A stretch of DNA of 64,000 bases. It comes from Escherichia coli (GTDB lineage: Bacteria > Pseudomonadota > Gammaproteobacteria > Enterobacterales > Enterobacteriaceae). Under the pieces are notes generated by a model. The model was given only the letters and a program-made list of their open reading frames with translations. It was not told where the DNA came from and made no database searches. The stretch's first letter is position 1, and each line of letters begins with the position of its first letter. The translations under genes were made by a program, and so were the position numbers. The stretch is from NCBI RefSeq assembly GCF_041886205.1, contig NZ_CP169029.1; one strand, given 5' to 3'. Shown one piece after another: positions 9,735 through 64,000 of the stretch.

Positions 9735-10889
9735 ATGTCTGAACAATTAGTCACACCTGAAAACGTCACCACCAAAGATGGAAAAATCAACCTGCTGGAT
9801 CTCAATCGTCAGCAGATGCGGGAGTTTTTTAAAGATTTAGGTGAAAAACCCTTCCGCGCCGATCAGGTGATGAAGTGGATGTATCACTATTGCTGCGACA
9901 ATTTTGATGAGATGACTGACATCAACAAAGTGTTGCGCGGCAAGCTGAAAGAGGTGGCGGAAATCCGCGCACCGGAAGTGGTTGAAGAACAGCGTTCATC
10001 TGACGGCACCATTAAATGGGCGATTGCCGTGGGTGACCAGCGTGTCGAAACGGTGTACATCCCGGAAGACGACCGCGCTACGCTCTGCGTCTCTTCACAG
10101 GTGGGGTGTGCGCTGGAGTGTAAATTCTGTTCCACCGCCCAGCAGGGCTTTAACCGCAACCTGCGGGTATCGGAAATTATTGGCCAGGTGTGGCGTGCGG
10201 CGAAAATCGTCGGCGCAGCAAAAGTCACCGGTCAGCGTCCGATCACTAACGTAGTAATGATGGGCATGGGCGAGCCGCTGCTCAACCTGAACAACGTCGT
10301 TCCGGCGATGGAAATTATGCTTGATGATTTCGGTTTTGGTCTGTCAAAACGTCGCGTTACCCTGTCGACCTCTGGCGTGGTTCCGGCACTGGATAAACTC
10401 GGCGATATGATCGACGTTGCACTGGCAATTTCCCTGCACGCGCCGAACGACGAAATTCGTGACGAAATTGTGCCGATCAACAAAAAGTACAATATCGAAA
10501 CGTTCCTTGCTGCGGTGCGCCGTTATCTGGAGAAATCCAACGCCAATCAGGGCCGAGTCACTATTGAATACGTGATGCTTGACCACGTTAACGATGGCAC
10601 TGAACACGCGCACCAACTGGCGGAGCTGCTGAAAGATACGCCGTGTAAGATCAACCTGATCCCGTGGAACCCGTTCCCGGGTGCGCCGTATGGACGCAGC
10701 TCGAACAGCCGTATCGACCGTTTCTCAAAAGTGCTGATGAGCTACGGTTTCACCACTATTGTGCGTAAAACGCGTGGTGATGATATCGATGCTGCCTGTG
10801 GTCAGTTGGCGGGCGATGTTATCGACCGTACGAAACGTACCCTGCGTAAACGGATGCAGGGTGAAGCCATCGACATTAAAGCGGTCTGA
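9735..10889 (+). CDS. rlmN: 23S rRNA m2A2503 / tRNA m2A37 methyltransferase (radical SAM)
   Basis: 384 aa; radical-SAM Cys motif [10 protein letters not shown]; conserved neighbour of ndk and rodZ. Confidence 0.95.
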
Positions 10890-20796: not shown

Positions 20797-20850
20797 GATT
20801 GGCGTAAGGCCAGTCGGCCAGTCGCTGAAGATTCATTAAGGAGAGACTCA

Positions 20851-21828
20851 ATGAAGCAGGACAAAAGACGCGGTCTGACCCGGATCGCATTGGCGCTGGC
20901 ACTGGCGGGTTACTGCGTGACGCCCCTTGCGCTGGCGGAAGACAGCGCGTGGATCGAGAGCGGCGAGACCAATATTTTCCAGGGGACTATTCCGTGGCTC
21001 TATTCGGAAGGAGGAAATGCTACGACAGATGCCGACCATGTAACGTTGACTTCTGATCTAAAAGGCGCTCGCCCGCAAGGCAGTGAAACGGACAAGCGTC
21101 TTTACTCGGGTGATAAACTAACCGTAAGCTGGGAGATTGGCGATACTGAAGGCGACGTCGATCTTGGTACGGCGGGTAAAGATGCAAAAACCATCGATAC
21201 CATCCGCTGGATGAGCTACAAGGACGCCCAGGGGGGCGATCCAAAAGAGCTGGCAACGAAGGTGACCACTTACACCCTTACCGATGCCGACCGTGGACGC
21301 TATATCGGTATTGAAATTACCCCAACCACCCAGACGGGTACGCCATACGTTGGGACTGCGCTGCATCTTTATGATGTTTCAAATGCTAACGGCGGGGGAA
21401 GCGATGAAGATAACGTTGATCCAGGACCGGTAGTTAACCAGAACCTGAAAGTCGCCATCTTTGTTAAAGACACTACGACCAACCTTATTAACGGCAATAC
21501 GCCAATCCAGTTGGGCAAAACGTACGTCGCCAAACTGTACTCGGATGAGAACAAAAACGGTCGGTATGACGCGGGTACTGACGTTGATGTTACCACCAAT
21601 TATGACTACCGTTGGGTACTCTCTGGCAGCAGCCAACAGCTCAGCACCTCGGGTGGTATCGTTAACTCAAGCTTCGATAATCAAAACCTGGTCATCCCTG
21701 CGACCAACGACGAAGCCAGAACCAACCTTAACGGCCCTGCTCGTGATGGCAAAGAGGCTCTTGCGATCCCGACCAACGGCGATGGGGTTCAGGGTTACAA
21801 ACTGCAAATTATCTACAAACACAAATAA
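20851..21828 (+). CDS. sinI: secreted protein sharing a C-terminal module with the SinH-like passenger (SinI-like)
   Basis: 325 aa; signal peptide with AEDSAW cleavage region; C-terminal ~110 aa align to the SinH-like C-terminus (VIPATN-EA, DG-QGY-L-Y-K, YDY-W--G-S). Confidence 0.65.
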   Translation: MKQDKRRGLTRIALALALAGYCVTPLALAEDSAWIESGETNIFQGTIPWLYSEGGNATTDADHVTLTSDLKGARPQGSETDKRLYSGDKLTVSWEIGDTEGDVDLGTAGKDAKTIDTIRWMSYKDAQGGDPKELATKVTTYTLTDADRGRYIGIEITPTTQTGTPYVGTALHLYDVSNANGGGSDEDNVDPGPVVNQNLKVAIFVKDTTTNLINGNTPIQLGKTYVAKLYSDENKNGRYDAGTDVDVTTNYDYRWVLSGSSQQLSTSGGIVNSSFDNQNLVIPATNDEARTNLNGPARDGKEALAIPTNGDGVQGYKLQIIYKHK

Positions 21829-21839
21829 CACTTGCTCAA

Positions 21840-21870
21840 CAGCATTCCCGCGTGGGAATGCTGTTTCCGC
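21840..21870 (+). terminator. possible rho-independent terminator after the SinI-like gene
   Basis: Hairpin cagcattccc gcgt gggaatgctg followed by TTTCCGCATATTTT. Confidence 0.5.
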
Positions 21871-21903
21871 ATATTTTGCTTAATTCAGGATTAAGCAAAA
21901 TAT
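21871..21903. promoter_or_regulatory. perfect 14-bp-arm palindrome (atattttgcttaat-tcagg-attaagcaaaatat) 45 bp upstream of the giant ORF; candidate operator
   Basis: Read directly in sequence; function unknown. Confidence 0.35.
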
Positions 21904-21948
21904 GTTGATGCGGTAACCGTTCGTTAAATAACTGGTGGAGTTCTTTTC

Positions 21949-24900
21949 ATGTCCCAGCCCCTGAAACCCGGCACTTTTTATGTTCTGCTTGTATTGCTGC
22001 TAACCGCAATGCTGCCGGGATGGTCATGGGCGGGCTCGTCATGGCAAGACTCATCCGATACGGCGGGAGAATTTAACGGTACCGTCCCCAATGCCGACAG
22101 CGCCAGTATGCCGGTTTATCAGGGCAGTATTTGGCTTGATCCTGCAAAGACCCATGATGTTTCGTTTTCCGCTAAACCCAATGAATTTAGCGTTAATCTG
22201 GATGTGTCGAAGCTGATTGTGACGAACCCGCAGGACCTGGAAGGGGATGTGTTTACCAACCCCCGTTGGGAAAACCAAACGCCGCCAGCGGTCTCTTTAG
22301 TCTGGGCGGATGCGGCGACACCGGAAACCCCACTTAATCCTCAGCCAGTGGCTGGGCGTTCCTTTTGTGCGCAAGGGCTTGCTGGGCGTTCGCTGGTTGT
22401 CTGGCCGCAGCCAGACCCACAGCAGACCATGCCGCAACTTTATCTACGCACCTCGACAGGTTATCCCTATGAAAGTCTTCTGACGCTTGTCGATAAAAAA
22501 GTGACGTTAAATATTGCACCGGCCCAGGGCGACTTAATTTCTGTCAGTGCGGCCGGTTATGACGATACCGTGGGCGGGGCGAAAACTACCGTTGGCGGCA
22601 ATATCACGTTGACCGTTACCACCAAAGACTGCAGCGGCAACGTTGCAGGAAATATTCCTTTTATTATCAAACGCAAAGATGCTGAAAACCGACAGGGTGA
22701 GGTCAACAATGCTTCGCCGGTTGTTCTGGACAAAACTGAACTGACCACTATCGCGACCGAATATCACGGCACCACGGATGCGAACGGCGTTGCGACGATC
22801 ACGGTCACGCAACCCAACGGCCCTGGTGTAAAAACGCCGCTGGTAGCCAGTCTTTCAGGTATTGGTCAAACCAGTGAAACGGCAGTGATCTTTACCGTCC
22901 TTACCAGCCCGGATGTCCCTCAGGCCACGATGTGGGGCCATATGCCCGATACGCTAAAGGCCCATGATTATACGTTCAGTCGGCCAAAATTGGCGGCAGA
23001 AGTCGATAACGAAAATGGTACCGTTAACGATCACAATGAAACCTGGTCTACCTTCACCTGGAGCGGGGCGGATAAACATTGCGACATTTTGCCCGGTATG
23101 CGCCAGTTTGGCGCGTTGGCAACGGTGGTGCCCACGACAGTTCAGGATCTCGTTGGTTGGCCGATACAGGGTAACTACTACTGGTCATCACTGGCGGGGA
23201 TGACCGGACAGCACCATGCGGCGGATGTTTCCAACCGTAGCGAAGCGCAAAAACCGGACGATACGACGTTTATTGTCAGTTGTGTCGATAAAGAAGCTCC
23301 TGACGTTGAACCGAAACTGGTGCTAACACCGGGAAGCTATGATTCGACGTTAAAGGCGATGAAAGTAAAGGTGGGGGAAGAAGCGTCTCTGCGTGTAACC
23401 ATCACCGATAATAAAAACAATAATCAACCGCTGGCGTATTACTACTTTTCGTTACATCTGGATGACGGCATCAACCGTAAAAATCCATCGGATGCGGCAT
23501 GGGAAGCGCATCCGGTGCAGATAGCGGGTGGCAGCAATGTCCATCAGGTTGACGCGCATACCTATGAAGGCATTACGGATGTAAATGGTCAGGCATCACT
23601 GACGCTAACGCAACCGGGCGGCGCGGGCGTGAAAACACACATTACTGCGAAAATGCGCAGCGACTTCACCACGTCGGATGAGAAAGACGTGATTTTTACA
23701 GTCATTACCAGCCCCGATACTGACAAAGCCCGGATGTGGGGGCATATGCAGGGTATTATTGATTCTAATAATATCTTTAAACGTCCACGGCTGGCAGATG
23801 AAACCGACCATGAACTCGGTTCAGTGCGGGAGAACAACGAAGACTGGGCGCTGTTCGACCAAAATAGCAGCATGCAGGCTGAATGCGGTGTAGGTCATAT
23901 TCCGAGCCAGAATCAATTACAGGGTCTGTTCACGGCGCATCCTGGCAATGCGATTGGCACCGAATATGGCTGGCCGACGGCGCAAAAAGATTACCTTAGT
24001 GCGGTACAACAAGAGCCACACTCCTCCGTGAACCTGGGCACAGGTAACATCGACACCTATTCAGGCTTTAAGCAGAACTATCTCTCCTGTTCCGGTAATG
24101 AGATGGTTGCTCAGATTACCGCAACGACCGATCATGACGTTTCCGTGGGCAGCAGGGCGCAGGCTAAAGTTGGAGAAACCGTCACCATGACGGTGCATAC
24201 CTTCAATGCACTGAATAATGCGCCCGTGCCGTTTACCGCCTTCAGCATCACAAAGGAGATGGGTAAAAACCGTCAGGGGCAGACTACCGGATATACCGAT
24301 CCGACGAGTGGCGCAATTGAGATGAATGGCACGCTCTACGGAACATCCCAGGCCTCGGTGGTTTATTCCGGGACTACGGATGCACAGGGCTACGCAACGG
24401 TGGAGATTGAACAACCCCAGGGCGTGGGCTTAATTACGCCGCTAAATATTGCGCCTGTGAACTCCTATATTCCCAATACAGTAAATTACAACGTGATTTT
24501 CACCACGCCTACCAGCCCGGATGTGGTGGCGGCGCAGATGTGGGGGCATATGGATGAGACTATTACAGTCGATTCTTTAACCTTCACCCGGCCTAAACTG
24601 GCAGCGGAAGTTTCCAGCCCGGATGCGACATTGACAGAAAATAATGAAGTCTGGGCACGTGTGAGTCAGGCGAATACGTCCAGTATAAGTAAAGGTGGCT
24701 GTGGAGCGAATATGCTGCCGCGTCGATCCCAGCTTAGCGCGCTCTATGAGGCTAATAACGGTAATGCTGTACAAACAGTACACGGCTGGCCAACCCTGCG
24801 TGAGCCGTACTGGAGTAGTTCCCCAGCGGATAAAGTTCCTCATTTTTACACCATTGCACTCAATGATGGCGCACAGGCTATTGGCGGTAGCAACGCGGTT

Positions 24901-27900
24901 TATGTCAGCTGCCTGACGACGGCAAATAGTCCTGCTAACGCTATTACCTTAGAGGTGGTGGATCAGGCGCAATGGAACGCGACGGCGAAAGCGGCGAAGC
25001 TGAAAAAAGGCGAAACACTCCAGGTTAAGGTAACGGTGAAGGATGCTCAGGGCAATGCACTGTCGGATATGCCATTCACCCTGAAACGTGGCGATGGTTA
25101 TACCCGCTCAAATGAAAAACATATTGCTGGCAGCGGGGATGCGCTGGTTGCGCCAGTCATCGTCAACGGAGGCCTGGCGGATGAAACTTCACTGAATGAT
25201 ACCGCGACAGCATACGTTGCCATGACCGGCAGCGACGGCACTAAAATACTTACCATAACCCGCCCGGAGACGCATGGCACCAAAACGGCGCTGATCGCTG
25301 CGCTGTATTCTGATGCAACGAAAAACGCCAGCCTCGACACCATTTTTACCGTTGCGACCAGCCCGGACAGCGATAAGGCGAAAATGTGGGGGCACATGGC
25401 GGAAACGGTGACGGCTACTGACGGCACGGTATTTAAACGCCCGCGCTTACTGAAAGAGTGGTCAACTCAGTCCTCTCTTACTGAAGATAATGAGGTCTGG
25501 GGGTTGTATAACATCAGCGATGCAAAATCTACCAGCGATGGCTGTGGCGCTAATTATGTTCCTGCGCAGGTTGGGCTGGAGTCATTGTTTGACAATAACC
25601 GCAGCAACGCGATGAAAACCGTACAAGGTTGGCCGGTAAATACTCATTATCTTTCAAGCACCTCGAGTACGGACAGTTTATCGCAGCATAATTATAAAGC
25701 CGTCGATCTGGGCAATGGAACCAGTACCTCAATATCCGCTTCCGAGAGGAAGTTGTTAACCTGCCAGACGACCGAGGTGTTACAGGCAAGCCAGATTCTG
25801 CTGGACGCAGCGGATCCAACCACCTTCGACAGCACAAATAATGTTGTCAAAGTTAAAAAAGGCGAAGCGGCAGTGGTGCGTGTAACCACGAAGGATTCGC
25901 AGGGGAATCCTGTAGGAAATACCGCATTTACCCTCAAACGAAACTACAGCGTGAACAGGGCTAATGCGTCGAATACCACGTCGATTGCTTCATTGGTGGT
26001 AACGGATGCATGGGGAAATACTCAGGACAGTTTTCTTTCCACGTCCCTGGTCATTTATGGCGTAACGGGGGCCGATGGCACCACCACCTTTACACTGAAA
26101 CAAGACCAGTCTACCGGCTTAAAAACGGAACTCACGGCAGCGCTGGACTCCTCCAGCAGCATTACATCGTCGCTTCCCGTCGTCTTTACGGTGCTTACCA
26201 GCCCGGATTCGCCAAAAGCCAAATTCTGGGGGCATATGGCTGAAACGGCGACAGGCGATGACGGTCTCATTTATAAAAGGCCATTGCTGAGAGACGAGAT
26301 TAGCGCCTCTAGCGGTATCAGCACCCTGACAGAAGAGGGGGAAAGCTGGTCTATGTTCCGGGCGGACAATGCTAATGATACTTCGATAAGTGGTTGTGGC
26401 GCGGAGTATGTTCCAACTGACAGTGAACTTAAGGCCATTTATGCGCACCAGGGGGGGAGCGCATTGCATGGTGCTATCGGCTGGCCCGTTTCGAAGCCCT
26501 ATATCTCGAATACCGTCGCAGATGCATTCACTCAACTCTTTAAGTTTGATGTCGTTTCGTTGAACACGGGAGATGAAACACAGATTTCATCAACTAGTGT
26601 AGGGCCTCTTAGCTGCCGTACCACGCCTGTCGCCGTTGCCAGTCAGATTATTGTTGAGGCGAACGATGCGGCGCAATTTGTCAAAGTTGACGATACCTTG
26701 AGTGCGCTGAAAGTGAAAAAAGGTGAAGACGCGGTGATTCGCGTGGTGACCAAAGATGCGCAGGGGAATACCGTGCCCAATGTTCCCTTTATTCTCAAGC
26801 GAGAGGGTTCAACGAATCGTCAAAATGTCACGATGATAAATAAGTCGATTACGGTGATTAACGCGGCAGGGACTTCTACGAATGTGCTTAGTTCGTCAAC
26901 ACTGCTTTATGGGGTAACGGGCGCGGACGGGACTACCACGTTTACGGTAAAACAAGATGATTCTATGGGTCTGATGACCAATATGTACGCTCAGTTGTAT
27001 CAGTCGACGATAGAATCCAACAAATTACCGGTGATGTTTACCGTTATAACCAGCCCGGATACGCCTCTGGCAAACTACTGGGGGCATATGTCTGAAACCT
27101 TCACGACAAGGTCGGGGGTTGTCTTCAAGCGGCCAATGCTTAGTGCCGAGCATCCAGCGGGGCAGTCAACCGTGGATAATAATGAATCCTGGCTTTCCTT
27201 AAATACAGCAGCAAAAAATGATGTCAGCAAATCAGGCTGTGACGAACCTTATCAACCGTTATTAAGCGAACTTCAGGATTTGTACAGTGAACATCCTAAT
27301 GGTGCGATAGGAACCGATTTAGGCCTTCCGTTGACGAAAACCTGGTGGGCTTACGATAAAGTGGCCTATGCGAACGCCTGGTACGATCAGTCTGTTAATT
27401 TGTCGAATGGGTCAAGCGCCAGGGCGTCGTCAACCACCGTTGCGTTTGTGCCCTGTCTGGTAAACCCTCATGCAGTGGCTGCTTCTATTGAGATAACCTC
27501 CACGGCACTGGATGCGGAGAAAACGGCCAGTAACGATGGTCGCCCCAGCGCAACCGCACCGAAAGGTACGGCGATCCGGATGACGGTGATTGTGCGGGAT
27601 AGCGCAGGAAATCCATTGCCCGGCGCCAACTTTAACCTCGTACGCGGGACGGCATTGGATCGTGCAAAATACAGTGTCGATAGTTCGGCTGATGATCTGA
27701 CCCTCGTGCCTGTCACACCTGCTGGCGTAAATATGACTCTCACGAGTAATACATCAAAAGCACTGTTGACGACAGGCAGTGATGGTAAAGTGACCTTTGA
27801 TGTGACGCAAAACGGGACTTATGGGCTCGCAACCCCGCTCACTGCAACATTGCTACGCGACACTTCAATAAGCGCCACGATGGATGTCATTTTCACGGTG

Positions 27901-30000
27901 ATAACCAGTCCCGACTCACCGAAAGCAAAATACTGGGGTCATATGGCCGACACGTTTACCAGCAGTGCGGGGGTGACCTTTAAACGACCACTACTGGCAG
28001 CGGAAGCGACCTCCGGGTCCTCGGTTGGCAGTAATAATGAGTCGTGGTCATACCTTAATGTTAACGACAGAGCTACGTCGGATTGCTCACTGGAGTATCA
28101 GCCGCGTCTCAATGAGTTACAGGGGTTATATAACGATCATCCTGGCGGGGCCATACAGACGGATCTGGGGTTACCTGTAGCTGCCGGAAGTGGAAACTGG
28201 TGGGCTTATGAAATGAGTATACCTAACCCCAGCGGGTCGGTGTGGTTTTACGGCATCATTAATTTGAAAACGGGACAATCGTCGACCACGTCGAGTGGAT
28301 TCGCTTTAATGCTCTGCCTGACGCAGCCGCATACGGTACCGGCAAGCCTTACACTGTCATCAACCGCCTACGATGAAGGCAGAACCGCCAGCAATGGTGG
28401 CACACCTACGTCATCTGTGAAAAAAGGTGAGACGCTTCCCTTAGTGGTGACGATCAAAGATGCCAATGGTAACCCCGTTGGCGGCGAAGGCGTTACGCTC
28501 AAGCGCGCGCAGGCGAAAAGCCGTTCAGGTATCTCTGTCTCCTCCACTACCGTTGATGATCTTATTTTAAATGAAGTCACACCGGAATCAGCCAGCTTTT
28601 CCTTCGCCGCGGATTTGGCATCATGGAGCGGCATCACCGGCAGTGACGGCACTGTAACGTTCAATATTACACAAAAAAATACCATCGGCCTGGTAACGCC
28701 GTTTACAGCCTCATTGGGGCGAAATCCGCAGGTCACCGCCAACCAGGACCTGATGTTCACGGTGGTAACCAGCCCGGATTCGCCGAAGGCAAACTACTGG
28801 GGGCATATGCCAGCAACCTTGACGGCAGTGAATGGTGCGGTATTTGAACGCCCGAAATTGTGGAGTGAACTGCCATCGACCTCCGGCGTCGGCAAGATCA
28901 ATAACAATAATGAGGACTGGCCGTACTATTCACCGACAAAAAAATCTGATGAGAGTGTGACCCCTTGCGAAGTGGCAAGACAGCCTCTGCTTAGTGATTT
29001 AAATTCGCTGTCTGCGCGTTATCCGGATAACACCTTCGCCGCTGAAACGGGCTGGTCTGTGTATTACACCTGGTGGGCAGAGGATAAATCCGCCGCGGGT
29101 AAAGATCAGTCGGTGGATTTGAGGAATGGCACGCTGTATACGAATGCAACAGGAGCATTTCTGCCATGCCTGGTTAATGCGCGTTCAACCGTTTCCAGCG
29201 TCACGCTCACCTCAACGGCGTTTGACGCTACCACTCAGGCGGCGAAAGTGAAAAAAGGCGAAGCCATGCCCGTTACCGTAACGGTGAAAGACAGCGCCGG
29301 GAAAACGGTGGCGAATGTGGCTTTTACCCTGAAACGCGGTGATGCTGCGCCAAGAAACCCAGGTATGGCCTTGTACGGCGATGTGGATGCGATGGATGAC
29401 ATGACCGTTCAGCCGACATCGGGAGCGGCGGTGACGTGGCCTGACAGTGGCAATGCTTTGCAGGGAACCACCGGTTCTGACGGTACGGCGACGTTTATGG
29501 TTAAACAGAATAATACGCCGGGTTATAAAACGCCGTTGACGGTCACGTTGGACAATAACACCAGCATCACTGCGACAATGGACGCTATTTTCACCGTAGT
29601 GACCAGCCCGAATGTCTCAAGCGCCTATTACTGGGGGCACATGGCAGATACGACCACGGTGAATGGTAAAACATTGCATCGCCCGTTGTTGGCATCGGAG
29701 CTACCTGCGAATGCTTCTTCCCCAGCCACGCCTGACGTAAACAATGAAGCCTGGGCTATGGGGCATATGGTGGATTCAAGGAATTGGGATATCGAGGCGC
29801 AGTGTGGCAGCTTGACCAACGCGCCAAACGATGACGACTTAATGGGTCTGTATACTAACTTTAGTTCGCTGGGTTGGCCTGCATCCCCGAGTTTTCCTTA
29901 CTTATCTTCTCAGAGATGCGGCGTGTTTGAAAACAGTGGACAACAGGACTGCGCTATTGCGCCAGGCAGCACAAAAGGTTTTGTGACTTGTACCCAATAA
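21949..30000 (+). CDS. giant secreted repetitive protein (2683 aa) with about 9 tandem ~280-aa modules containing Ig-like (BIG-type) segments; RatA/RatB/ShdA-family-like
   Basis: Signal peptide at the N-terminus; motif FTV-TSPD...WGHM recurs 9 times with 800-866-bp period (DNA positions about 22895, 23698, 24500, 25341, 26181, 27031, 27888, 28754, 29590); each module also has VKKGE...V.VTVKDA.GN...FTLKR and C(G)..Y.P...L..LY motifs. Confidence 0.8.
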
Positions 30001-30045: not shown

Positions 30046-31526
<1,481 letters not shown>

Positions 31527-31657: not shown

Positions 31658-33124
31658 ATGCTACGTATCGCTAAAGAAGCTCTGACGTTTGACGACGTTC
31701 TCCTCGTTCCTGCTCATTCTACCGTTCTGCCGAATACTGCTGACCTCAGCACCCAGCTGACGAAAACTATTCGTCTGAATATCCCTATGCTTTCCGCAGC
31801 AATGGATACCGTAACGGAAGCGCGCCTGGCTATTGCTCTGGCTCAGGAAGGCGGTATCGGCTTTATCCACAAAAACATGTCCATTGAACGCCAGGCAGAA
31901 GAAGTTCGCCGTGTGAAAAAACACGAATCTGGTGTGGTGACTGATCCGCAGACTGTTCTGCCAACCACGACGCTGCGCGAAGTGAAAGAACTGACCGAGC
32001 GTAACGGTTTTGCGGGCTATCCGGTCGTTACCGAAGAAAACGAACTGGTGGGTATTATCACCGGTCGTGACGTGCGTTTTGTTACCGACCTGAATCAGCC
32101 GGTTAGCGTTTACATGACGCCGAAAGAGCGTCTGGTCACCGTGCGTGAAGGCGAAGCCCGTGAAGTGGTGCTGGCAAAAATGCACGAAAAACGCGTTGAA
32201 AAAGCGCTGGTGGTTGATGACGAATTCCACCTGATCGGCATGATCACCGTGAAAGATTTCCAGAAAGCGGAACGTAAACCGAACGCCTGTAAAGACGAGC
32301 AAGGCCGTCTGCGGGTTGGTGCTGCAGTTGGCGCAGGTGCGGGTAACGAAGAGCGTGTTGATGCGCTGGTTGCCGCTGGCGTTGACGTTCTGCTGATCGA
32401 CTCCTCCCACGGTCACTCAGAAGGTGTTCTGCAGCGTATCCGTGAAACCCGTGCTAAATACCCGAATCTGCAAATTATTGGCGGCAACGTGGCAACAGCT
32501 GCAGGTGCTCGCGCGCTGGCAGAAGCTGGTTGCAGTGCGGTTAAAGTCGGTATCGGCCCAGGCTCTATCTGTACGACTCGTATCGTGACTGGCGTCGGTG
32601 TTCCGCAGATCACCGCCGTTGCTGATGCAGTAGAAGCCCTGGAAGGCACCGGTATTCCGGTTATCGCTGACGGCGGTATCCGTTTCTCAGGCGATATCGC
32701 CAAAGCTATCGCCGCTGGCGCAAGCGCGGTAATGGTGGGTTCCATGCTGGCAGGTACTGAAGAATCTCCGGGGGAAATCGAACTCTACCAGGGCCGTTCT
32801 TACAAATCTTACCGTGGGATGGGCTCTCTGGGCGCGATGTCCAAAGGTTCCTCTGACCGTTACTTCCAGAGCGACAACGCTGCCGACAAACTGGTGCCGG
32901 AAGGTATCGAAGGTCGCGTAGCCTATAAAGGTCGCCTGAAAGAGATCATTCACCAGCAGATGGGCGGCCTGCGCTCCTGTATGGGTCTGACCGGCTGTGG
33001 TACTATCGACGAACTGCGTACTAAAGCGGAGTTTGTACGTATCAGCGGTGCGGGCATTCAGGAAAGCCACGTTCACGACGTGACCATTACTAAAGAGTCC
33101 CCGAACTACCGTCTGGGCTCCTGA
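31658..33124 (+). CDS. guaB: IMP dehydrogenase
   Basis: 488 aa from [24 protein letters not shown] pair and catalytic Cys loop ([11 protein letters not shown]). The ORF-track start at 31589 is an upstream extension. Confidence 0.95.
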
Positions 33125-53857: not shown

Positions 53858-54271
53858 TCACGTAATTTTTCTGGCCATCAGATAGATGGCCGGTTCCTGC
53901 ACAATTTCATCCAACAGATGAATGAATTGAATGCTACGCGCCTGCCACACAGACGTCGCGTCATCCGCCAGTGGCGCGAATGCCCGGGTCAACAGGGCGG
54001 TGTGGCTGGCGTCAATAACAATCTCACCAAAAGTCATCACCCCCAGCATCTTACGTCGGGCTTGCTCCTCTTCGACCAGTGCAAGCCAATCTTCGTATTC
54101 CGTCAGTGGGCAGGGGAAGGCGACATTCAGACAATCAATCACGCCAACGTGATGACCGATAGCCAGCGAGTAATACATTACCTGAGAGCTGTGTTCCGGC
54201 ATCTCGTCGCTACTGGCGACAAACTTTTTTCGCAGCGTCCAGAAAACAATTTCCCCGCACTCTTCAGTCAT
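53858..54271 (-). CDS. hyfJ: hydrogenase-4 maturation/assembly protein (HycH-like)
   Basis: 137 aa from [17 protein letters not shown]; the ORF track extends 21 codons upstream. Confidence 0.8.
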
Positions 54272-55021
54272 GTAACCCCCGGAGTACGCGAAAGAGTTGC
54301 TGAACGATACTATTGAGACGTGGATCGTCGGCATCGCGCAACCAGGTGTTAACCCGATTTCCTGTAGGATCGTCGCTTAAATGGCGCAGGAGCCGATCGC
54401 AAATTTCTCGCCCCTGACGATAGCCCGCCAGCCGCCGCGCTTCTCGCTCAATGGCGATACGCTGTGATGGCGGGATCTGCGGCCACAACGGTTGCATAGT
54501 CACCCCGGTGGGATCGCGATAATCCACCGCGTGAATCTTCTGTTGCAGCAAACCGAGCGCCACGGCGAAACCGTGAATGGTGGCGGCCGGTGTTGGCGGG
54601 CAGCCGGGGATCCAAACATCAATGGGGACAATGGTGTCGCTGCCGCCCCAGACGCTGTAGAGATCGTGGAAAATCCGCCGCCGGCACCGCACGCGCCGTA
54701 GGAAACACAGATTTTATGATCGGGGGCAGACTCATACGCCCGAAGTGCAGGCATACGCATCGCCCGGGTGAGTGCGCCAGTAAATAACAAAATATCGGCG
54801 TGACGCGGTGATGAAACAACCTTAATGCCAAAACGTTCTGCGTCGAATACTGGTGTAATGGCGGCAAAAATTTCGATTTCACAGGCGTTGCAGCCACCGC
54901 AATCGACGCGATAAACGTAGGCTGAGCGACGGATATCCTGTAGCAAATGCCGCTTCATCTTTTGCGTTTGCTCGTCCAGCGTGATGGGCTGGCTGACATA
55001 TTGCGTAAGCACTGGACTCAT
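54264..55021 (-). pseudogene. hyfI: hydrogenase-4 small subunit (NuoB-like), disrupted by a -1 frameshift near 54675
   Basis: Two ORFs (54500..55021 and 54264..54692) in different frames. The first reads intact through ...[14 protein letters not shown] and the second resumes at [27 protein letters not shown]; 116 + 136 = 252 aa, matching the NuoB motif spacing (CANGGG-YYHY-SYSVV); locus length 758 bp instead of 759. Confidence 0.75.
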
Positions 55022-55563
55022 AGCTGCTCCTTAGCCACCAGCGGTACATCTGTATCGTCGTTGAGCAGCGTCGCGCGTTGTTTGCACTCCGGGCAGACGC
55101 TCGCTTGCGCCCATAACATTTCGCGGTTTTGTGGCGCATTTTGTTGCTGTGCCAACAATTCAGCAGCCAGTGCGACGGTTTTTTGCGGGGCAAACGGGCG
55201 TTCGCAACGGCTGCAACGTTGTAGATGGAACGTCGCGCGGGTATAGAGATCGGCTTTATTGGTGACGGTCAGTTCAAAGTTATTGGTAAGCTGGATGGCT
55301 CTGGTCGGGCACACTTCTTCACAACGTCCGCAGTAAATACAACGCCCCAGATAGAGCTGCCAGGTGCGCGAATTTTGCTGGTCGTCGGTCTGGATAGTCA
55401 GCGCATTTGCCGGACAAGCACAGGCGCAGGCACCGCAGGCAATACATTGGCTGGGCATCAGGTCCGGTTTCCCGCGAAAGCCTGGGCTGACCTCCAGTGG
55501 CGCGAAGGGATATTTCACCGTCGCGGTTCCGGCGCGCATAATAGTTTTCAGTAACTTCAGCAT
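55018..55563 (-). CDS. hyfH: hydrogenase-4 ferredoxin-like subunit (2x 4Fe-4S)
   Basis: 181 aa; [12 protein letters not shown] and [12 protein letters not shown] motifs. Confidence 0.9.
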
Positions 55564-55572
55564 CTTCTGTCC

Positions 55573-57288
55573 TTACTTCAGCGGCGAACGGTTACGATCA
55601 ATGCCGTAGCGTTCGATCTCTTTATACGGCACGGTTTTTGACTGGCGCTTGCGCACATCTACCAGCGTCACACGGTCGGTACAGGAGTAGCAGGGATCAA
55701 GGCTACCGATAATCAGCGGTGCGTCAGAAACGGTATTGCCGCGCAGCATGTAACGCAACACCGGCCAGTTGGCGTAGGTGGCGGCACGACAGCGCCAGCG
55801 GAACAATTTTTGGTTATCACCGAGCATGCTCCAGTGCACGTCTTCGCCGCGTGGCGCTTCAACAAAGCCCAGCGCGAATGCGTGAGGTTTATAGCTAAAG
55901 CCTTCGGTCAGCAGTGGGGTATCCGGCATGTTGTCGAGGGCAAATTCCAGCATTGCCAGCGAATCAAACGTCTCTTTGACACGGACCATCATGCGGGAGA
56001 AGACATCGCCGCCGGTAAAGGTAAACAGTGTTTTTGGAATATTGCCGTAGTCGGCGTAGGGGTGATCAAAGCGCAAATCACGGGCAAAACCACTGCCGCG
56101 GATCAGCGGCCCTACAGGGCTATAATCACGGGCGATTTGTCGGTCGAGAATGCCAATGCCCTGAGTGCGTTGTTCCATATTCGGCGTAGCAAGCAGCATC
56201 TCTACCAGCTCCGACACGTCGGCGCGCATCTCGCGCACCAGTTTCAGCGTTTGCAGACGTTGCTCTTTGAGAATATCGCGGCGAACACCACCAATCAGAT
56301 TCAGACCGTAGGTTTTACGCGACCCGATCAGCAATTCCGCCATCGTCATCGACTTTTCCCGCACGCGGAAAAATTGCATAAAGCCGGTATCAAAACCAAC
56401 GAAATGGCAGGAGAGGCCAAGGTTAAGCAAATGACTGTGTAGCCGTTCGACTTCCAGCAGAATCGAGCGAATAGTATGTGCTCGTTGCGGCACCTCAATC
56501 CCCAGTGCATTTTCAACCGAGTTGGTATAGGCCACACTGTGGGCAAAACCGCAAATCCCACACACGCGGTCCGATAAGAAGGTCACTTCGTTGTAGCCCA
56601 TCCGCGTTTCTGCCAGTTTCTCCATGCCGCGATGGACATAAAACAGGCGGTAATCAGCATCGACAATTTGCTCGCCATTCACAAACAAGCGGAAGTGACC
56701 CGGTTCATCGGAGGTGATATGCAGCGGGCCGACAGGGATCACCCGCGCATCGCTGTTGCCCTCATTGATAAACGCATACGTTTCGGAATCTGTCGTCGGT
56801 TCAGGGCGCAGTCGATAATCCATCGCATCTTTGCGCAGCGGATGCATATCTTCCGGCCAGTCATCGGGCAACACCAGGCGACGCTGATCCGGCAGGCCAA
56901 CCGGAATCAGCCCGTACATATCGCGAATTTCTCGCTCGCCCCAGACCGCGGCAGGGACGCGCAGTGTGACTGACGGAAACTCCCGACTGTCGGCATCGAC
57001 CAGTGCCTTAACCACGATCCAGCATTTTTCGGCCCCTTCCATAGAAAGGGCATAATAAACGGCGTAATGACCGTTAAGTGTCCGCTCGTCGTTGCCAAAC
57101 AGGACCGGAAGCCAGCCATCATGTTGATAATAAAGATAATGTACAACGTCAGGCAGCAGATTGATTTTCACCGTAATGGTGACCTGTTCAGGCGTTTGTC
57201 GCTCTTCATCCAGCACCGCGCCGGGGAACTGCGTTTTCAGGGCGGCGAGAATCGCTTCGCCACGATTTGACGATGAATTAACGTTCAC
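55573..57288 (-). CDS. hyfG: hydrogenase-4 large (NiFe) subunit
   Basis: About 571 aa from the GTG at 57288 (RBS GAGAAA); NiFe-hydrogenase large-subunit motifs ([12 protein letters not shown]-terminal, [10 protein letters not shown]-terminal); exact start uncertain. Confidence 0.85.
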
Positions 57289-58858
57289 TGTGTTTCTCCG
57301 AAACAGATGCGGTGCCTGAAGGCAAAAAATCATGCCAGGTGCTACGTTGTGCAGGCAGGTCGTGCGTCCCTGAGAGGACTATAGTGGAAGCGCCCGCCAG
57401 GATCCTGATGACAGGTTGTGGAATATGCGTTCCCATCGCCAGCATCATGACCAGCAGAATCACCATTGGCGAGGTGGTCAACCAGCCGAGATCACCCCGG
57501 TTAACGGCCTGCGGCGGTTTCGCCATTAACACCCGCGCAGCCATCCGTACCAGGCCCGCCAGCACCAGCGTTAACAGCAATAACAGCATGACGATAATCA
57601 GCAGGTGATTACGTGCCAGTCCGGCGGTAACGGTCATAAATTCGCTAAGAAAAATGTTGAAGGGCGGCATCCCGGCCAGCGCCAGCGCACCGCCGCCAAA
57701 CAGCACGGCGGTAAATGGCATGATTTTGAGCATCCCGCAGACGACGTTGAGATCGCGCGTGCCGTACTTGAGCAGTACATTGCCGGAACCGCAGAACAGC
57801 AGCGTTTTTGCCAGACTGTGGTTTAAGGTGTGCAGCAGCGCGGCAAAAATTCCCAGCGGCCCGCCAATGCCTAGCGCCACCGCGACCAGTCCCATGTTCT
57901 CCACGCTGGAGTACGCCAGCAGACGCTTAATGTCCCGCTGTACCAGAATGAAAAATGCCGCCACGGCAACCGACAACATGCCGAAGATGAGCAACAACCG
58001 GTTGGGGAAATCGCTGCCGATGGCCTGGCAGATAATGATGTAATAGCGAATCATCACCAACAGCGCGCAGTTCAGCAATACGGCGGAGAGCAGGGCGCTG
58101 ACCGGACTCGGCGCTTCACTGTGAGCATCCGGCAGCCAGGCGTGCATAGGAAATAGCCCGGTTTTGGTACCAAAGCCAATTAGCACAAACACAAAGGCCA
58201 ATAGCATTAATGTTGGGTCAAGCAAGGACTATTGCTTAAGAACCTCGCTCCAGAATATCGCCATTTCTGCCTGCGGCATAACGCTGGCGGCGTTGGCGTA
58301 TACCAGCACGGTACCGAACAGACCAAAAGCGACGCCAACAGTACAAATAATGATGTACTTCCATGCAGCTTCCAGCGATGAACGCTGACCGTAAATGCCT
58401 ACCAGAAACGCCGAGCTTAAGGTGGTGGCTTCGATCGCCGCCCACATCACAATCAGGTTATTGCTGGTAACAACCAGCAGCATGGTGAACAAAAACAGAT
58501 GGAAGAAACCGTAGTAATCGCACAGCGTAACGGGTGAAAGCTCGCCGTGTGCCACTTCATGACGCATGTAGCCAATCGAGTAAACACCGGTGAGAAAGCC
58601 AATCACACCAAGAATGGCGAGGAACAAACCGCCCAGACCATCAATATGAAGCCACAGTCCCGCAGCGAATATTTCTCCCGCACCAGCGGCAGTTTGAACC
58701 AACCAGAGTGCCAGAATCAGCAGCAGTGTGATCCCTAAGCTATGTAATACTGTCACCGCGCGAGTCGCAGAGTGCCCCCGTTTCCGGCAGGCAAAACAGA
58801 GCAGCGAAAAAAGCAGCGGCGTGAGCAGGAGTAAAGCGAACATCACAGAATAACTCAT
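57278..58858 (-). pseudogene. hyfF: hydrogenase-4 membrane subunit (NuoL/M/N-like), interrupted by an in-frame amber codon (TAG at 58229-58231)
   Basis: ORFs 58229..58858 (209 aa) and 57278..58225 (315 aa) are in the same frame, separated by TAG plus one codon; 209 + 1 + 1 + 315 = 526 codons, i.e. one gene with a nonsense mutation. Confidence 0.75.
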
Positions 58859-58862
58859 CTCA

Positions 58863-59513
58863 TTATCCCTTCAGCGCGGTCAAGTTGTTCACGTCCAGCG
58901 TGCCGTGGGTACGCCATATTTTTCTTGCCAGTAACACCATCACAATGACGGCGAAGATGGCGTCGGTAGCGATACCTATTTCCACCAGTTCCGGTGCTCG
59001 CCAGGCAAGAAGCGCCAGCACCAGATGGGAGCCGTTTTCCATCAGGCAGTAACCAAAAATTTGCCGCAGGATATTGCGCTGGCTGACAATGCACAGCAGG
59101 CCAAGCAGAAAATGACCTAACGCTACCGCCAGCGCCGGTTTCAGCCCGGTAGCCATCGGTAGCTTCATGGGCTGAACGACAAATGCGCAAAGCAGGACAA
59201 TTAACGCCGCGAGCAGTGCCATCATTGCCGGACCGAATAACGCTTTTTCCGGGATGTTCTGGGGAATATTTCGTGCAGCGTAAGTCATGATTAACGGTAC
59301 CAGCAGCACTTTGGTGATAAAGGCGCTGGCGGACCAGATCAGCAGTTGCTCTGCGGCGAACAGGCACGAGAGAGTGGCGAAAATAGACACCAGCACCAGC
59401 GACTGGCAGGCGTAAAATCCGCATGACAGGCGATAGCTTTTGACGCTAATCACAAACAGCGATGTCAGCATCATCAGTCCCGCCAGATTATTTACGATCA
59501 TAGAACCGGTCAT
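58863..59513 (-). CDS. hyfE: hydrogenase-4 membrane subunit
   Basis: 216-aa hydrophobic protein in the conserved position. Confidence 0.9.
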
Positions 59514-59524
59514 TCATCATCTCC

Positions 59525-60963
59525 TTACTGCAACCAGGTCGCGGCGATTACGCTGGAAATCAGCGACATCACAATCAGTACAATCAACACCAGGCGCATT
59601 GACCCTGGCAGCGGTGCGGCATCGGCGACGGCCTCGCTCGGTTTGCCAGGCACAACGCGACCAAACCAGCGAATAAACCAGGCGAAACTGGCGACCGATT
59701 CAATCATCAGCAGAATCATGGCGGGCAGCAGGATCCAGTACTCCACTGACAACGCAAAACCGGCAGCAAACAGCGGGAATTTACTGAAGAAGCCGTTGAA
59801 CGGCGGCACACCGGTAATCGCCAGCGCTGCCACGCAGAAACCCACGCCTGGCAACGGCAGGGTGTGCAATACGCCACGCAGACGCGGCAACAAGCGCGTG
59901 CCGCAGCTGTAACTCAGCGCACCTGCTACAAGGAAAAACAGGCTTTTAGCGAACGCGTGGTTGACGATGTAGGCGATGCTACCCTCCAGCGCCAGCCGCG
60001 AGCCGAAGATGGAGAGCGACAAACCGAAGAACATCCAGCCAAGTTGAGTGATGGTCGACCAGGCCAGCAACCGCTTCATATCCTGCTGTGGCAAATACAT
60101 CAGAAAGCCATAAAGAATGGTGACCAGGGCCATGACCATGCCAACGCCGCCAATCACATGCGGGATATTGCCACCGTCGATAATGGCGCGGGCAAAAATG
60201 TAAACGCCCACTTTCACCATCGATGCGGCGTGGAGATAGGCGCTGATCGGTGTTGGCGCTTCCATTGCATCCGGTAGCCACGCTTGCATCGGTAGCTGGG
60301 CCGATTTCCCCCACGCGGCAAACAGGATGCCGCCATAAACCAGATAACGTGCGTCGCCGTGTAACTCGCTCATCGCGCTAAGCGCAAACGTTCCGGTCTG
60401 CAAAAACAGCGTGGCGGCGGCAAGATACAACCCCAACGAGCCGATATGAGTGATAAGTAACGCTTTTAGTGCTGAACGCTGTGCTTTATCGCTCTGGTAA
60501 TAACTGATCAACGCCCAGGAGCAGCCGCCCGTAATTTCAAAAAACAACAACTGACCGAGCAGCGTCGAGGAGAGTACCAGTCCCGCCATCGCGCCGATAA
60601 ACAACAGCAAAAATGCGTAATAACGATTCGTGCCGTTATGCGGGTGTTCGCGATTTTTATCCGTCAGATAACCCGTGGAGTAGATCGTGACCAGCAAACC
60701 GAGAAACACCACCACAAACAGAATCAGCGTACTCACGCGATCAATGAGCAGGCCAAACAACGCCACATCCCCCACGTTGACCAACGTCAACGTGACGGCA
60801 ACTTTATCGGCCTGATAAAACGCGGAGATCAGCGACAACATGCACAGCGTGGTCAGTGCGGCGAACAAAACCCCCATTCGGCGGCCCGACGTTGTGGCGA
60901 AAACGAAACGACCAGTGCGCCGATAAAAGGCAGCATTAACGTCGTCAGAGCAAGATTTTCCAT
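59525..60963 (-). pseudogene. hyfD: hydrogenase-4 membrane subunit (NuoL/M-like), -1 frameshift in a C5 run (plus strand 60871-60875)
   Basis: True start ATG at 60963 with RBS TAAGGAG reads MENLALTTLMLPFIGALVVSFSPQRRAAEWG and then hits TGA. The 450-aa ORF continues in the -1 frame from VLFAALTT; 31 + 448 = 479 aa; locus length 1439 bp is not a multiple of 3. Confidence 0.75.
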
Positions 60964-60979
60964 ATTCCGTCAGTGCTCC

Positions 60980-61927
60980 TTACAGACCGGTTAACCAGAA
61001 GACCCATGCAAGCGCAGCAAGGCTGAAGCCAAGCCAGGTCACATGGTGAATGAGTAAAAAACGCCCGCGTGCCAGCGTGTTTTCTGCGATTGAGGCCAGT
61101 ACAAAAATCAGCAAAACCTTGAGCAGCGTAACGACAAGTGAAGTCAGCAGGCAGGCGAGAGAAAGTTCTTGCGCGCGCCCAAAGGGCAGAAACAGGGCCA
61201 CAAACAGTGCTGCCATCACGACCTGTTTCAGCCCCAGCCCCCATTTCGCTAGCGCCAGCCCGGCACCGGAATATTCGGTCAGCGGGCCTTCCTGTAATTC
61301 CTGTTCTGCTTCAGCAACATCAAAGGGAATTTTTCCCATCTCAATGAAGCAGGCAAAACCACAGGCCAGTAACGCCAGTACGGTGGTTAGCGGCGAGTTC
61401 CAGCCCGTTGCCAGCGTATTGCTGATCATCTCGATATGCGTGGAACCTGCTATCAGCGCCAATACCAGCAGTGAGAGAATGAGCATGGGTTCGACCAGAA
61501 TGCCGAGCGTCAACTCGCGACTGGCACCGACTCCCGCAAACGGGCTTCCGGTATCCAGCCCGGAAAGAGCAAAGAAAAAACGAAACAGGGCAAGAAGATA
61601 GATAAGGGTGATCAGATCGCCGCCGCCCGCAAAAGGGGAAACGGTAATAAAAAGTGGTAGGGCCATCGCCAGCACCAGCATGCTGCTGATTAATACCCAC
61701 GGCATCAGGCGGAACATCAGACCTGAAGATATAGGCGCAACTTCCTGGCGTTTAAACAGTTTGTGGATATCGCGATAATCCTGCCAGATCCCCGGCCCGC
61801 GGCGGGAGTGCATACGCGCGCGTATCTGCCGGGAAATACCCGTAAAAAGCGGGGTTAGCAGCAGCAGAATCACGGCCTGTGCTAACGCAAAAATGACCAG
61901 ATATCCGTCGCAAAGAGTTTGTCTCAT
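60980..61927 (-). CDS. hyfC: hydrogenase-4 membrane subunit (NuoH-like)
   Basis: 315 aa from MRQTLCDGYLVIFALAQAV; the ORF-track start is 7 codons upstream. Confidence 0.9.
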   Translation of the reverse strand: MRQTLCDGYLVIFALAQAVILLLLTPLFTGISRQIRARMHSRRGPGIWQDYRDIHKLFKRQEVAPISSGLMFRLMPWVLISSMLVLAMALPLFITVSPFAGGGDLITLIYLLALFRFFFALSGLDTGSPFAGVGASRELTLGILVEPMLILSLLVLALIAGSTHIEMISNTLATGWNSPLTTVLALLACGFACFIEMGKIPFDVAEAEQELQEGPLTEYSGAGLALAKWGLGLKQVVMAALFVALFLPFGRAQELSLACLLTSLVVTLLKVLLIFVLASIAENTLARGRFLLIHHVTWLGFSLAALAWVFWLTGL

Positions 61928-61937
61928 GGTGATTTCC

Positions 61938-63955
61938 TTAGACGGCAATAGCGATTAGCAGCACAACCAGTGCGGCGACCACATACAGGCAATAGAGACG
62001 AAAGTCGCCGCTTTGCAGATGCTGTATTTCTTTGGCCAGCCGTTGGGTGGCGCTCACGATGGGGCGGATCACCCGCTCATCCCAGAAGGGTTCTGTGCTC
62101 TGAGCCCTGGCGGTGACGTGCGCAAGACCTTTATTTAGCCTCAGCGTAGGGTCGAGCTGTTGTCGTAGACGAAATAGCGCAGAAAAGACCACACGCAGCG
62201 GCTGCATCACGCCATTGCCTGACGGGGCCATCGCATTTTCCCAGCCGTAGCCGCATGCCCAGGCATCTCCTGTGCGACGAAACGCTGCGCGGCGCGAACG
62301 ACACCACAGCCAGTAAAGGCCAGGCAGCAAAGGCATCGCCAGTAGTAACAGCAACAGTAATGAGGGTGTGACCCGTGTATGAAACGTGCCGGGTACAAGT
62401 GCTATTCCGCTGGCGACAGTGACGGGAGGGGTATTGGTAAACGCATGGGCAATGTGCATTATCTTCGGTGCCAGCCAACTGGCACTGAGCGCAATTAATA
62501 CGCAGAGTGCCGCGAGCAGTAGCATGGCGACGATCATTGTATTTGGCACTTCCTGTGCCTCTTCAGCGTGTGTGCTGCGCGGCGCACCACAGAAAGTAAT
62601 ACCGTAGATTTTGACGAAGCACATTACTGCCAGCCCACCAGTGACTGCCAGCATTACCATAGCAATAGGACCCGCAAGTTGTAGCGCTACGGCTTCCACA
62701 CGACTTAGTGAGAACAGCAACTGCCAGGTGTACCATTCGCTGATAAAACCATTCAGCGGAGGAATGGCTGATATCGCGAGGCAACCAATCAGGCATGCTG
62801 CGGCTGTCCACGGCATCCGTTTCGCCAGTGCCCCCATTTTTTCCATGTCGTGGGTATGCAAACGCGAAATAATCGCACCCGCGCCGAGAAATAGCAGCCC
62901 TTTGAACAGCGCATGGTTGAGCAGATGAAACAGTGCGCCGAGCAGTCCAACCACGGTGAGCAGCGGGTCGTGCAGTGACAGACCGTCCATCGCCACACCG
63001 ACCGCCAGCAAAATAATGCCGACGTTTTCGACGGTACTCCAGGCCAGCAGCCGTTTGATATCCTGTTCCGCCAGTGCATACAGCACGCCCAGGAGCGCGG
63101 AGATTGCGCCGATCGCCATCACCAGAGTGCCCCACCACAGAGGCAAACCCGTTTGCGCCAGCAGATCCATCGCTACTTTCAGGATGCCGAAAATACCGAT
63201 TTTGACCATTACGCCAGACATCAACGCCGAAGCGTGCGATGGTGCGGCAGGGTGAGCGCGCGGCAACCAGCTGTGCAACGGCATCATCCCGGCTTTCGCG
63301 CCAAAACCGAAAAAGGCCAGCAGAAACACCGCCGACGCCAGCCCCGGAGAAAGTGAAAGCGTGCGAAACTGGCAAAATCGAGGCTGCCGCTTTCGCGCCC
63401 CATCAGCAAGAAGGCGATCATAATCAGCACCGATCCGGCGTGGGCGATAAAAAAGTAGAGCATGCCAGCGTTGATCGACGTTTTATCCTGCCTGGCAATG
63501 ACCAGAAACCAGGAAGACAGCGACATCATTTCAAACAGCACGATGAACCAAAAAGCGTTGTCCATCACCAGCAGGGCAACCATCGATGCGATGAAAAGAT
63601 TCATAAAGAAGCCCATCGCCGCCGCGCCTTTGCCCTCGTATTCGCGCATATAAGTCAATGAATAGAGCGAACAAACCACCACCAGCAAGGAGATAACCAG
63701 CACCATAAATGCCGAGAGGCTATCCATTCGCAGGGTTAAATCGGCAAAGTCAAAAGGGGTGGCAAAATGGGCGACTAAAGTTACACCAGCATGTAATTGC
63801 GTAATTCCGCTGATGATGCCAATCACGCCGCCCACCAGCGATGTGATGCCGGAAAGCTTAATAGCCAGTCTGTCCAGACCGAGTAAAAACAGCGAAGCCA
63901 GACTGGCAAACAGATAGAGGATCAGCGACCAGGTTAATAATTGCAGGGCATCCAT
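61938..63955 (-). pseudogene. hyfB: hydrogenase-4 membrane subunit (NuoL-like), -1 frameshift around 63360-63370
   Basis: ORFs 63284..63955 (real through ...GSLDFASF) and 61938..63329 (resuming RTLSLSPGLAS-VFLLAFFGFGAKAGMMPLHSWLP) are in different frames; 197 + 475 = 672 codons with one shared nucleotide. Confidence 0.75.
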
Positions 63956-64000
63956 TAGTGTTGCTCCTGAGTGAGGGAAAGGGGATCCTCCCCGCCATTG
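63955..64000 (-). CDS. hyfA: 3' end of the upstream hyf gene (presumably hyfA), partial
   Basis: An open frame enters from the window edge and ends at a TAA overlapping the hyfB ATG (TAATG), with AGGAG serving as the hyfB RBS; identity inferred from operon order only. Confidence 0.35.
   Translation of the reverse strand, partial: NGGEDPLSLTQEQH

Follow-up and report, generated by a model that had tools for sequence, protein, structure and literature searches.

The hydrogenase-4 (Hyd-4; formate hydrogenlyase-2, FHL-2; a group 4a [NiFe]-hydrogenase) operon of Escherichia coli K-12 was reportedly described by Andrews et al. in 1997 as hyfABCDEFGHIJR-focB, and here we analyze the corresponding operon (hyfA-J, hyfR and focB), which is encoded on the minus strand and occupies the right end of a 64-kb segment of an E. 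coli chromosome (contig NZ_CP169029.1; this whole stretch is hereafter called the window). The hyf genes of K-12 are poorly expressed or silent, and attempts to engineer the strain have given no Hyd-4 activity (PMC7654741, PMC7384014), for which "additional, unknown, biosynthetic problems" have been invoked (PMC7654741; also bioRxiv 10.1101/563510 on E. coli FHL-2). The FHL-2 operons of Pectobacterium atrosepticum and Trabulsiella guamensis are intact, carry hyfK for the maturation protease and give H2 production; their hyfA-J genes are homologous to those of the window and provide five membrane subunits, HyfE among them (PMC7384014; bioRxiv 10.1101/563510). The E. coli operon has no hyfK (PMC7654741), and that of the window would additionally be without four subunits. 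The operon is absent from phylogroup B2 (PMC2617782, Touchon 2009) and from the F/G/B2 lineage (PMC6896753), so that Hyf function is likewise lost in part of the species by deletion, whereas the window retains the operon and carries point lesions instead.

The window's operon has the same gene order and location (bcp-hyf-yfgO) as that of K-12, at about 98.7% nucleotide identity. The order hyfA-B-C-D-E-F-G-H-I-J-R-focB at the bcp/yfgO locus is given both by alignment to K-12 and by the RefSeq annotation of strain wlxctx60 (NZ_AP045833.1; bear faeces, Japan; 4.65 Mb genome), from which the window differs by 10 single-nucleotide polymorphisms (SNPs) and no gaps over its full length. Compared to K-12, the window has four disrupted open reading frames (ORFs) but a full-length HyfG of 571 amino acids (aa), while HyfG of K-12 has 555 aa. 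From these sequences it appears very probable that the operon has been naturally inactivated by four independent historical point mutations, which would truncate HyfB, HyfD, HyfF and the small iron-sulfur subunit HyfI and leave the strain unable to assemble Hyd-4.

The lesions were defined by aligning each hyf gene of K-12 MG1655 to the window. The alignment agrees with the first-pass annotation of this DNA, which had called single-nucleotide deletions in hyfB, hyfD and hyfI and a TAG codon in hyfF; the coordinates and the undisrupted protein lengths it gave (672, 479, 526 and 252 aa) are all correct, and its view that these are point events holds, there being no rearrangement in the alignment. 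In hyfB, CC is reduced to C, changing GTTTCCGCAC to GTTTCGCAC, and the remaining G of the plus strand is at about window position 63365. The shortened G run of hyfD (G6 to G5) is read as a C run at 60871-60875, and the new stop codon of hyfF, at 58229-58231, results from a G to T change at 58230 on the plus strand. In hyfI the loss of one T turns GGTATTTT into GGATTTT, with the junction at 54674/54675. HyfB, HyfD and HyfF, which are antiporter-like membrane subunits, are truncated at approximately residues 197, 30 and 209, and the frameshift at codon 116 of HyfI causes the loss of Cys141 of the GCPP motif. We take this cysteine to be an iron-sulfur cluster ligand, by homology to NuoB and HycG.

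We mapped the 46 complete coding sequences (CDSs) annotated in wlxctx60 onto the window and checked their translations for internal stops. Forty-two contain none, namely hyfC, hyfE, hyfG, hyfH, hyfJ, hyfR, focB and 35 others, and the four broken CDSs are hyfB, hyfD, hyfF and hyfI; the earlier claim that the rest of the window is intact was thus accurate, with hyfA cut by the window end. The pseudogene flags of the Prokaryotic Genome Annotation Pipeline (PGAP) in wlxctx60 fall on exactly these four genes and nowhere else across the 64 kb. The probability of finding at least four pseudogenes in 10 adjacent genes is 3e-5 to 2e-3, given a genome-wide pseudogene fraction of 2-6% that was assumed and not measured. 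Uninterrupted ORFs for all hyf structural subunits are therefore not present in the window, four of them being interrupted (Table 1).

Table 1. State of the hyf operon in the 64-kb window, with coordinates, strand and the lesion or evidence for each gene.
Gene	State	Coordinates	Strand	Lesion, evidence or remark
hyfA	3' end, cut by window end	63955..64000	-	K-12 alignment; intact in wlxctx60
hyfB	pseudogene	61938..63955	-	1-nt deletion, K-12 nt 591; stop at codon 224
hyfC	intact, 315 aa	60980..61927	-	K-12 alignment and translation
hyfD	pseudogene	59525..60963	-	1 G lost from G6 run, K-12 nt 89; stop at codon 37
hyfE	intact, 216 aa	58863..59513	-	K-12 alignment and translation
hyfF	pseudogene	57278..58858	-	Ser210 TCG to TAG
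hyfG	intact, 571 aa	55573..57288	-	full length; has 48 nt absent from K-12
hyfH	intact, 181 aa	55018..55563	-	K-12 alignment and translation
hyfI	pseudogene	54264..55021	-	1-nt deletion, K-12 nt 348; stop at codon 174
hyfJ	intact, 137 aa	53858..54271	-	K-12 alignment and translation
hyfR (sigma-54-dependent activator)	intact, 670 aa	51816..53828	-	K-12 alignment and translation
focB (formate channel)	intact, 282 aa	50946..51794	-	K-12 alignment and translation

The same four pseudogenes are annotated in wlxctx60, in the probiotic strain G3/10 (healthy human, Germany; 4.95 Mb) and in OkiPb01705 (Japanese cattle; 5.30 Mb), that is, in strains with different hosts and genome sizes. PGAP labels hyfB "frameshifted" in all three, and hyfF is labeled as having an "internal stop" in these and in LHM10-1. 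To count carriers, we used megablast queries built so that no 28-nt seed could match without covering the lesion, against 5426 complete E. coli genomes, a collection dominated by clinical and livestock clones whose percentages are not population frequencies. The hyfB deletion was found in 1264 genomes (e.g. E24377A, HS and O121:H19), the hyfD deletion in 1102 (e.g. E. coli B and HS), the hyfI deletion in 685 (e.g. W, O26, O111 and O103), and the hyfF TAG in 293 (e.g. LHM10-1, F5505-C1 of serotype O25:H16, and the OkiPb series). Among reference genomes, the hyfB and hyfD lesions occur together in E24377A and HS, and the hyfI lesion occurs in W. The window's combination of the hyfF TAG at codon 210 with the hyfI deletion is relatively rare, at approximately 53 genomes (a chimeric query matched 978 places in 925 genomes). 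Recent mutations private to this strain are ruled out as the origin of the lesions by these allele counts.

Because independent assemblies carry identical lesions, the four lesions are real heritable alleles and not assembly artefacts, which also upholds the earlier argument that random sequencing error is not their source. Single-base indels are the usual long-read artefacts, and one of the three deletions, that in hyfD, does lie in a G6 homopolymer, as homopolymer or GC-run miscalls together with one base-call error would have it. Nevertheless, the hyfD deletion is the only one in such a context: the hyfB deletion is in a mere 2-nt run and the hyfI deletion is outside any homopolymer. Sequencing or assembly error would further have to produce the same lesions in 293-1264 independent assemblies, including the reference genomes E24377A, HS, W and B, and in co-segregation with linked SNPs, while breaking no gene in the rest of the 64 kb. 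We regard its chance of being correct as negligible.

Comparison of 19 hyf operons in one common coordinate system showed that the carriers of each deletion are related at the locus. All carriers of the hyfB deletion have a single haplotype across the 5'-most 800 nt of hyfB, carriers of the hyfD deletion are marked by a linked SNP at hyfD nt 28, and in every sampled carrier of the hyfI deletion a linked T-to-C change lies about 10 nt upstream of the deletion. Because of these linked SNPs and the shared hyfB 5' haplotype, each lesion has a single origin and is identical by descent among its carriers. Recurrent slippage at the hyfD G run was considered as well and is unsupported, given the linked SNP that marks the carriers.

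The uninterrupted operon is the ancestral state, because O157:H7 and three other divergent genomes (Tig207, Lstone01 and KOr019) have no lesion at all; hyfB, hyfD, hyfF and hyfI are also uninterrupted in K-12. The first-pass annotation had allowed that reference orthologues might carry the same breaks as a programmed feature, and this was not borne out, since the frames are uninterrupted in K-12, O157:H7 and other divergent genomes. Full-length proteins could in principle still be made by programmed recoding (ribosomal frameshifting, and read-through of the TAG) or be restored by phase variation through slippage in the hyfD G run; the hyfD lesion is indeed a change in homopolymer length, and alleles this common could suggest that they are tolerated. 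However, the sites are polymorphic, and no canonical X XXY YYZ slippery heptamer in phase could be read from the sequence at them. The hyfD run was found only as G5 or G6, with either length linked to its own haplotype and no hypervariability, and the other three lesions lie outside repeat tracts. The same lineages moreover gather destructive lesions (a 208-nt deletion, further stops and an insertion sequence (IS) element), and dN/dS is raised. Recoding or phase variation is accordingly hard to credit as an account of these alleles.

A second possibility is that the broken genes act as split genes, with translation restarting downstream of the lesions and a modified complex being assembled from, for example, HyfD without residues 1-29 and HyfB as pieces of 197 and 463 aa. 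A downstream ORF piece is present for each of the four broken genes, long in every case, and the hyfD deletion places an ATG (60877-60875) exactly in frame with residues 31-479, which would encode HyfD without its residues 1-29; the hyfB and hyfD alleles are each present in more than 1000 genomes. In contrast, no recognisable Shine-Dalgarno sequence was seen upstream of the restart codons at any of the four genes. Splitting HyfI at codon 116 would part Cys141 from the other cluster ligands, and the restarted HyfD would be without its first transmembrane helix. Strains with these alleles also gain more hyfD lesions (a 1-nt deletion at 434, a 208-nt deletion and a 38-nt insertion), as expected of a dead gene. 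We therefore consider assembly of a modified complex from split products very unlikely, and an operon inactivated by the four point mutations remains our preferred reading.

The four lesions do not follow a nested order of accumulation. LHM10-1 has the hyfB, hyfD and hyfF lesions, along with a stop in hyfC, and its hyfI is intact, while W and 95NR1 have only the hyfI lesion out of the window's four; strictly nested accumulation was rejected on this basis, and recombination is needed. Ecol_AZ147 has only the hyfB and hyfD lesions, HS has the same pair plus in-frame changes, and JNE151685 has the hyfB, hyfD and hyfI lesions. Compared with LHM10-1, the window has only 4 SNPs across the 8.5 kb that hyfB-hyfH span, yet hyfI has 12 and hyfJ has 7, and this jump places a clear recombination breakpoint between hyfH and hyfI. 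The four-lesion operon is a recombinant in which older null alleles were brought together, partly by homologous recombination. In the 7.6-kb flank, W (phylogroup B1) and K-12 (phylogroup A) are at the same distance from the window (98.93%).

Within hyfI, at window positions 54769-54910 (hyfI nt ~112-253), there is a run of about 8 SNPs whose combination occurs in no other sampled operon except the near-identical one of wlxctx60, and so is also absent from the other sampled carriers of the hyfI deletion. Only two sites in hyfI are strictly private to the clade carrying the hyfF TAG, and several of the other variants in this run are individually shared with O157 and Tig207. The segment looks like a short imported patch.

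Decay of hyf extends well beyond the window. At least 11 different inactivating lesions were found among the 19 operons, at least ten in hyf and one, a frameshift, in focB. Those in hyf are the 1-nt deletion at 591 of hyfB; a 1-nt deletion at 290 (strain B) and a stop at codon 279 in hyfC; 1-nt deletions at 89 and 434, a 208-nt deletion and a 38-nt insertion in hyfD; stops at codons 210 and 123 in hyfF; and the 1-nt deletion at 348 of hyfI. Strains including E24377A, HS, B, W and O22:H8 share one to three of the window's lesions, and several differ from it by lesions of their own: E24377A and O22:H8 by the hyfF stop at codon 123 and the 208-nt hyfD deletion, and strain B by the hyfC frameshift. 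The operon is present in 4298 of the 5426 complete genomes, and a chimeric ten-segment query found at least one of ten catalogued lesions in approximately 2310 of these 4298 (54%), a count that is approximate since one bottom-ranked row is a bare 28-nt match. The remaining 1128 genomes (21%) gave no hyf match, in agreement with the reported absence of hyf from B2 and F/G/B2. No paper on point-lesion decay of hyf or on hyf pseudogenes in E. coli was found in the searchable literature, which does not include subscription journals; such decay may have been described before, and the pseudogenes do carry RefSeq annotation.

The OkiPb cattle strains, which have the same four lesions as the window, carry an IS4-like IS421 transposase in the place of hyfA (OkiPb01705 segment 1-803). 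Homology of OkiPb01705 to the window stops 37 nt into the 3' end of hyfA, a fifth hit by which the promoter side of the operon is also gone. In focB, SX23 and O22:H8 RM10809 share the same complex indel near nt 681-691, which results in the frameshift, and bcp is flagged as frameshifted in O22:H8 RM10809 as well.

The first-pass annotation had proposed comparing dN/dS of the hyf genes with that of the flanking genes, and we did so between the window and K-12 by the Nei-Gojobori method. For hyfB-J, dN/dS (omega) is 0.177 (43 non-synonymous and 80 synonymous differences), as compared to 0.036 for 26 flanking genes (38.5 non-synonymous and 328.5 synonymous; Fisher p = 2e-9). Pairs of intact operons gave values of 0.075-0.147, and pairs of broken operons 0.17-0.22. 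Substitutions in hyfB-J private to the clade carrying the hyfF TAG number 13 non-synonymous and 11 synonymous, for an omega of about 0.36, which exceeds the baseline of 0.10 (p = 0.002). These values are suggestive, though not conclusive, of constraint relaxed after inactivation, with most of the allele divergence older than the lesions.

Taken with the lesions, this supports both readings offered at first pass, ongoing decay of a cryptic complex or a lineage in which Hyf has been lost, the lesions being real and the constraint apparently relaxed. Decay itself stands; what does not stand is an origin in this strain, as the alleles are old and found in 293-1264 genomes, or a restriction to its lineage, as at least 54% of hyf-bearing genomes are hit. 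The gene decay is of an ordinary kind and not special to this lineage: most of the species has a broken operon or none at all. Hyf may add little or nothing to fitness in much of E. coli, which would fit its silent status in K-12, and disabling mutations would therefore drift and accumulate, with related lineages taking further hits. Each lesion had a single origin on a recognisable haplotype and is now found in hundreds to more than 1000 genomes, homologous recombination having shuffled the null alleles into differing combinations.

Several points weigh against this interpretation. The regulator gene hyfR, focB and six structural genes remain intact, and partial products might yet be translated from the downstream ORF pieces. 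The omega of the clade carrying the hyfF TAG is still below 1 (p = 0.014), and that between broken operons is only about 0.2 in pairwise comparison; therefore, either most of the allele divergence predates inactivation or some constraint persists. The clonal make-up of the genome collection, described above, likewise counts on this side. Nevertheless, inactivation by the four point mutations would, for annotation purposes, predict that the strain carrying the window is without hydrogenase-4. Across E. coli, hyf is a mosaic of old recombining null alleles, and hyf physiology inferred from K-12 should not be expected to carry over between strains; the analysis also points out genomes whose operon is still uninterrupted.

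The hyfG gene differs in the opposite direction. The 571-aa HyfG of the window, the large subunit, aligns end to end with HycE (7Z0S_E, E = 7e-290), and the N- and C-terminal Cys motifs are both present, the latter as DPCYSCTDR. Relative to the window and to O157:H7, hyfG of K-12 MG1655 has a 48-nt in-frame deletion, corresponding to window positions ~56086-56133 and flanked by 10-nt direct repeats (two copies of GCCCGTGATT). The deletion removes 16 residues, including a GPxxR[GA]SG motif. Full-length HyfG is gapless against HycE in the FHL-1 structure 7Z0S (DFSNVGPMVRASGHARD), MbhL in 6CFW and NuoCD in 7Q5Y, and the GPxxR[GA]SG core is kept in all three (7Z0S_E, 6CFW_L and 7Q5Y_B). Approximately 2113 genomes carry the hyfG deletion, including K-12, HS, B, 95NR1 and Ryan-0026, a count taken from a union query in which 3073 genomes had at least one lesion and a further 2113 places were matched. 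At most 1225 of the 5426 genomes are free of all eleven catalogued lesions, that is, the ten above and the hyfG deletion.

Judging from sequence, the hyfG deletion is a candidate reason why Hyd-4 of K-12 cannot be activated. If it does inactivate the catalytic subunit, it would explain the failure to obtain Hyd-4 in K-12 despite engineering of the promoter and of the assembly peptide, and lesion-free strains such as O157:H7 and some others would be the place to examine native E. coli FHL-2. Loss of this segment would thus be a testable candidate for what has been called a "long-standing mystery" of E. coli FHL-2 (bioRxiv 10.1101/563510) and "unknown biosynthetic problems" (PMC7654741). Nothing relevant to the K-12 hyfG deletion was found in the literature, subscription journals being outside the searchable set. 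That Hyf is already nonfunctional, or becoming so, in most E. coli, with the K-12 laboratory reference itself defective, is a tentative extension of these results, to which we give somewhat less than even weight.

Elsewhere in the window, two regions have no counterpart in K-12. Positions 18622-30000 hold an island between yfgJ and xseA, which abut in K-12; its genes for the inverse autotransporter SinH, for a SinI-family protein and for an adhesion-domain protein (8052 nt) are intact. Positions 4338-9013, between pbpC and ndk, where K-12 has nothing, hold a four-gene operon of the dimethyl sulfoxide (DMSO)/selenate-reductase family (A, B and anchor subunits plus a 4Fe-4S protein). The xseA gene (30120-31496; 1377 nt, as compared to 1371 nt in K-12) has a dS of about 0.20 to K-12, while most flanking genes have about 0.03; guaB (31658-33124) and rlmN (9735-10889) have a dS of 0.10-0.14. 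The divergent xseA, guaB and rlmN probably mark recombination imports beside the islands.

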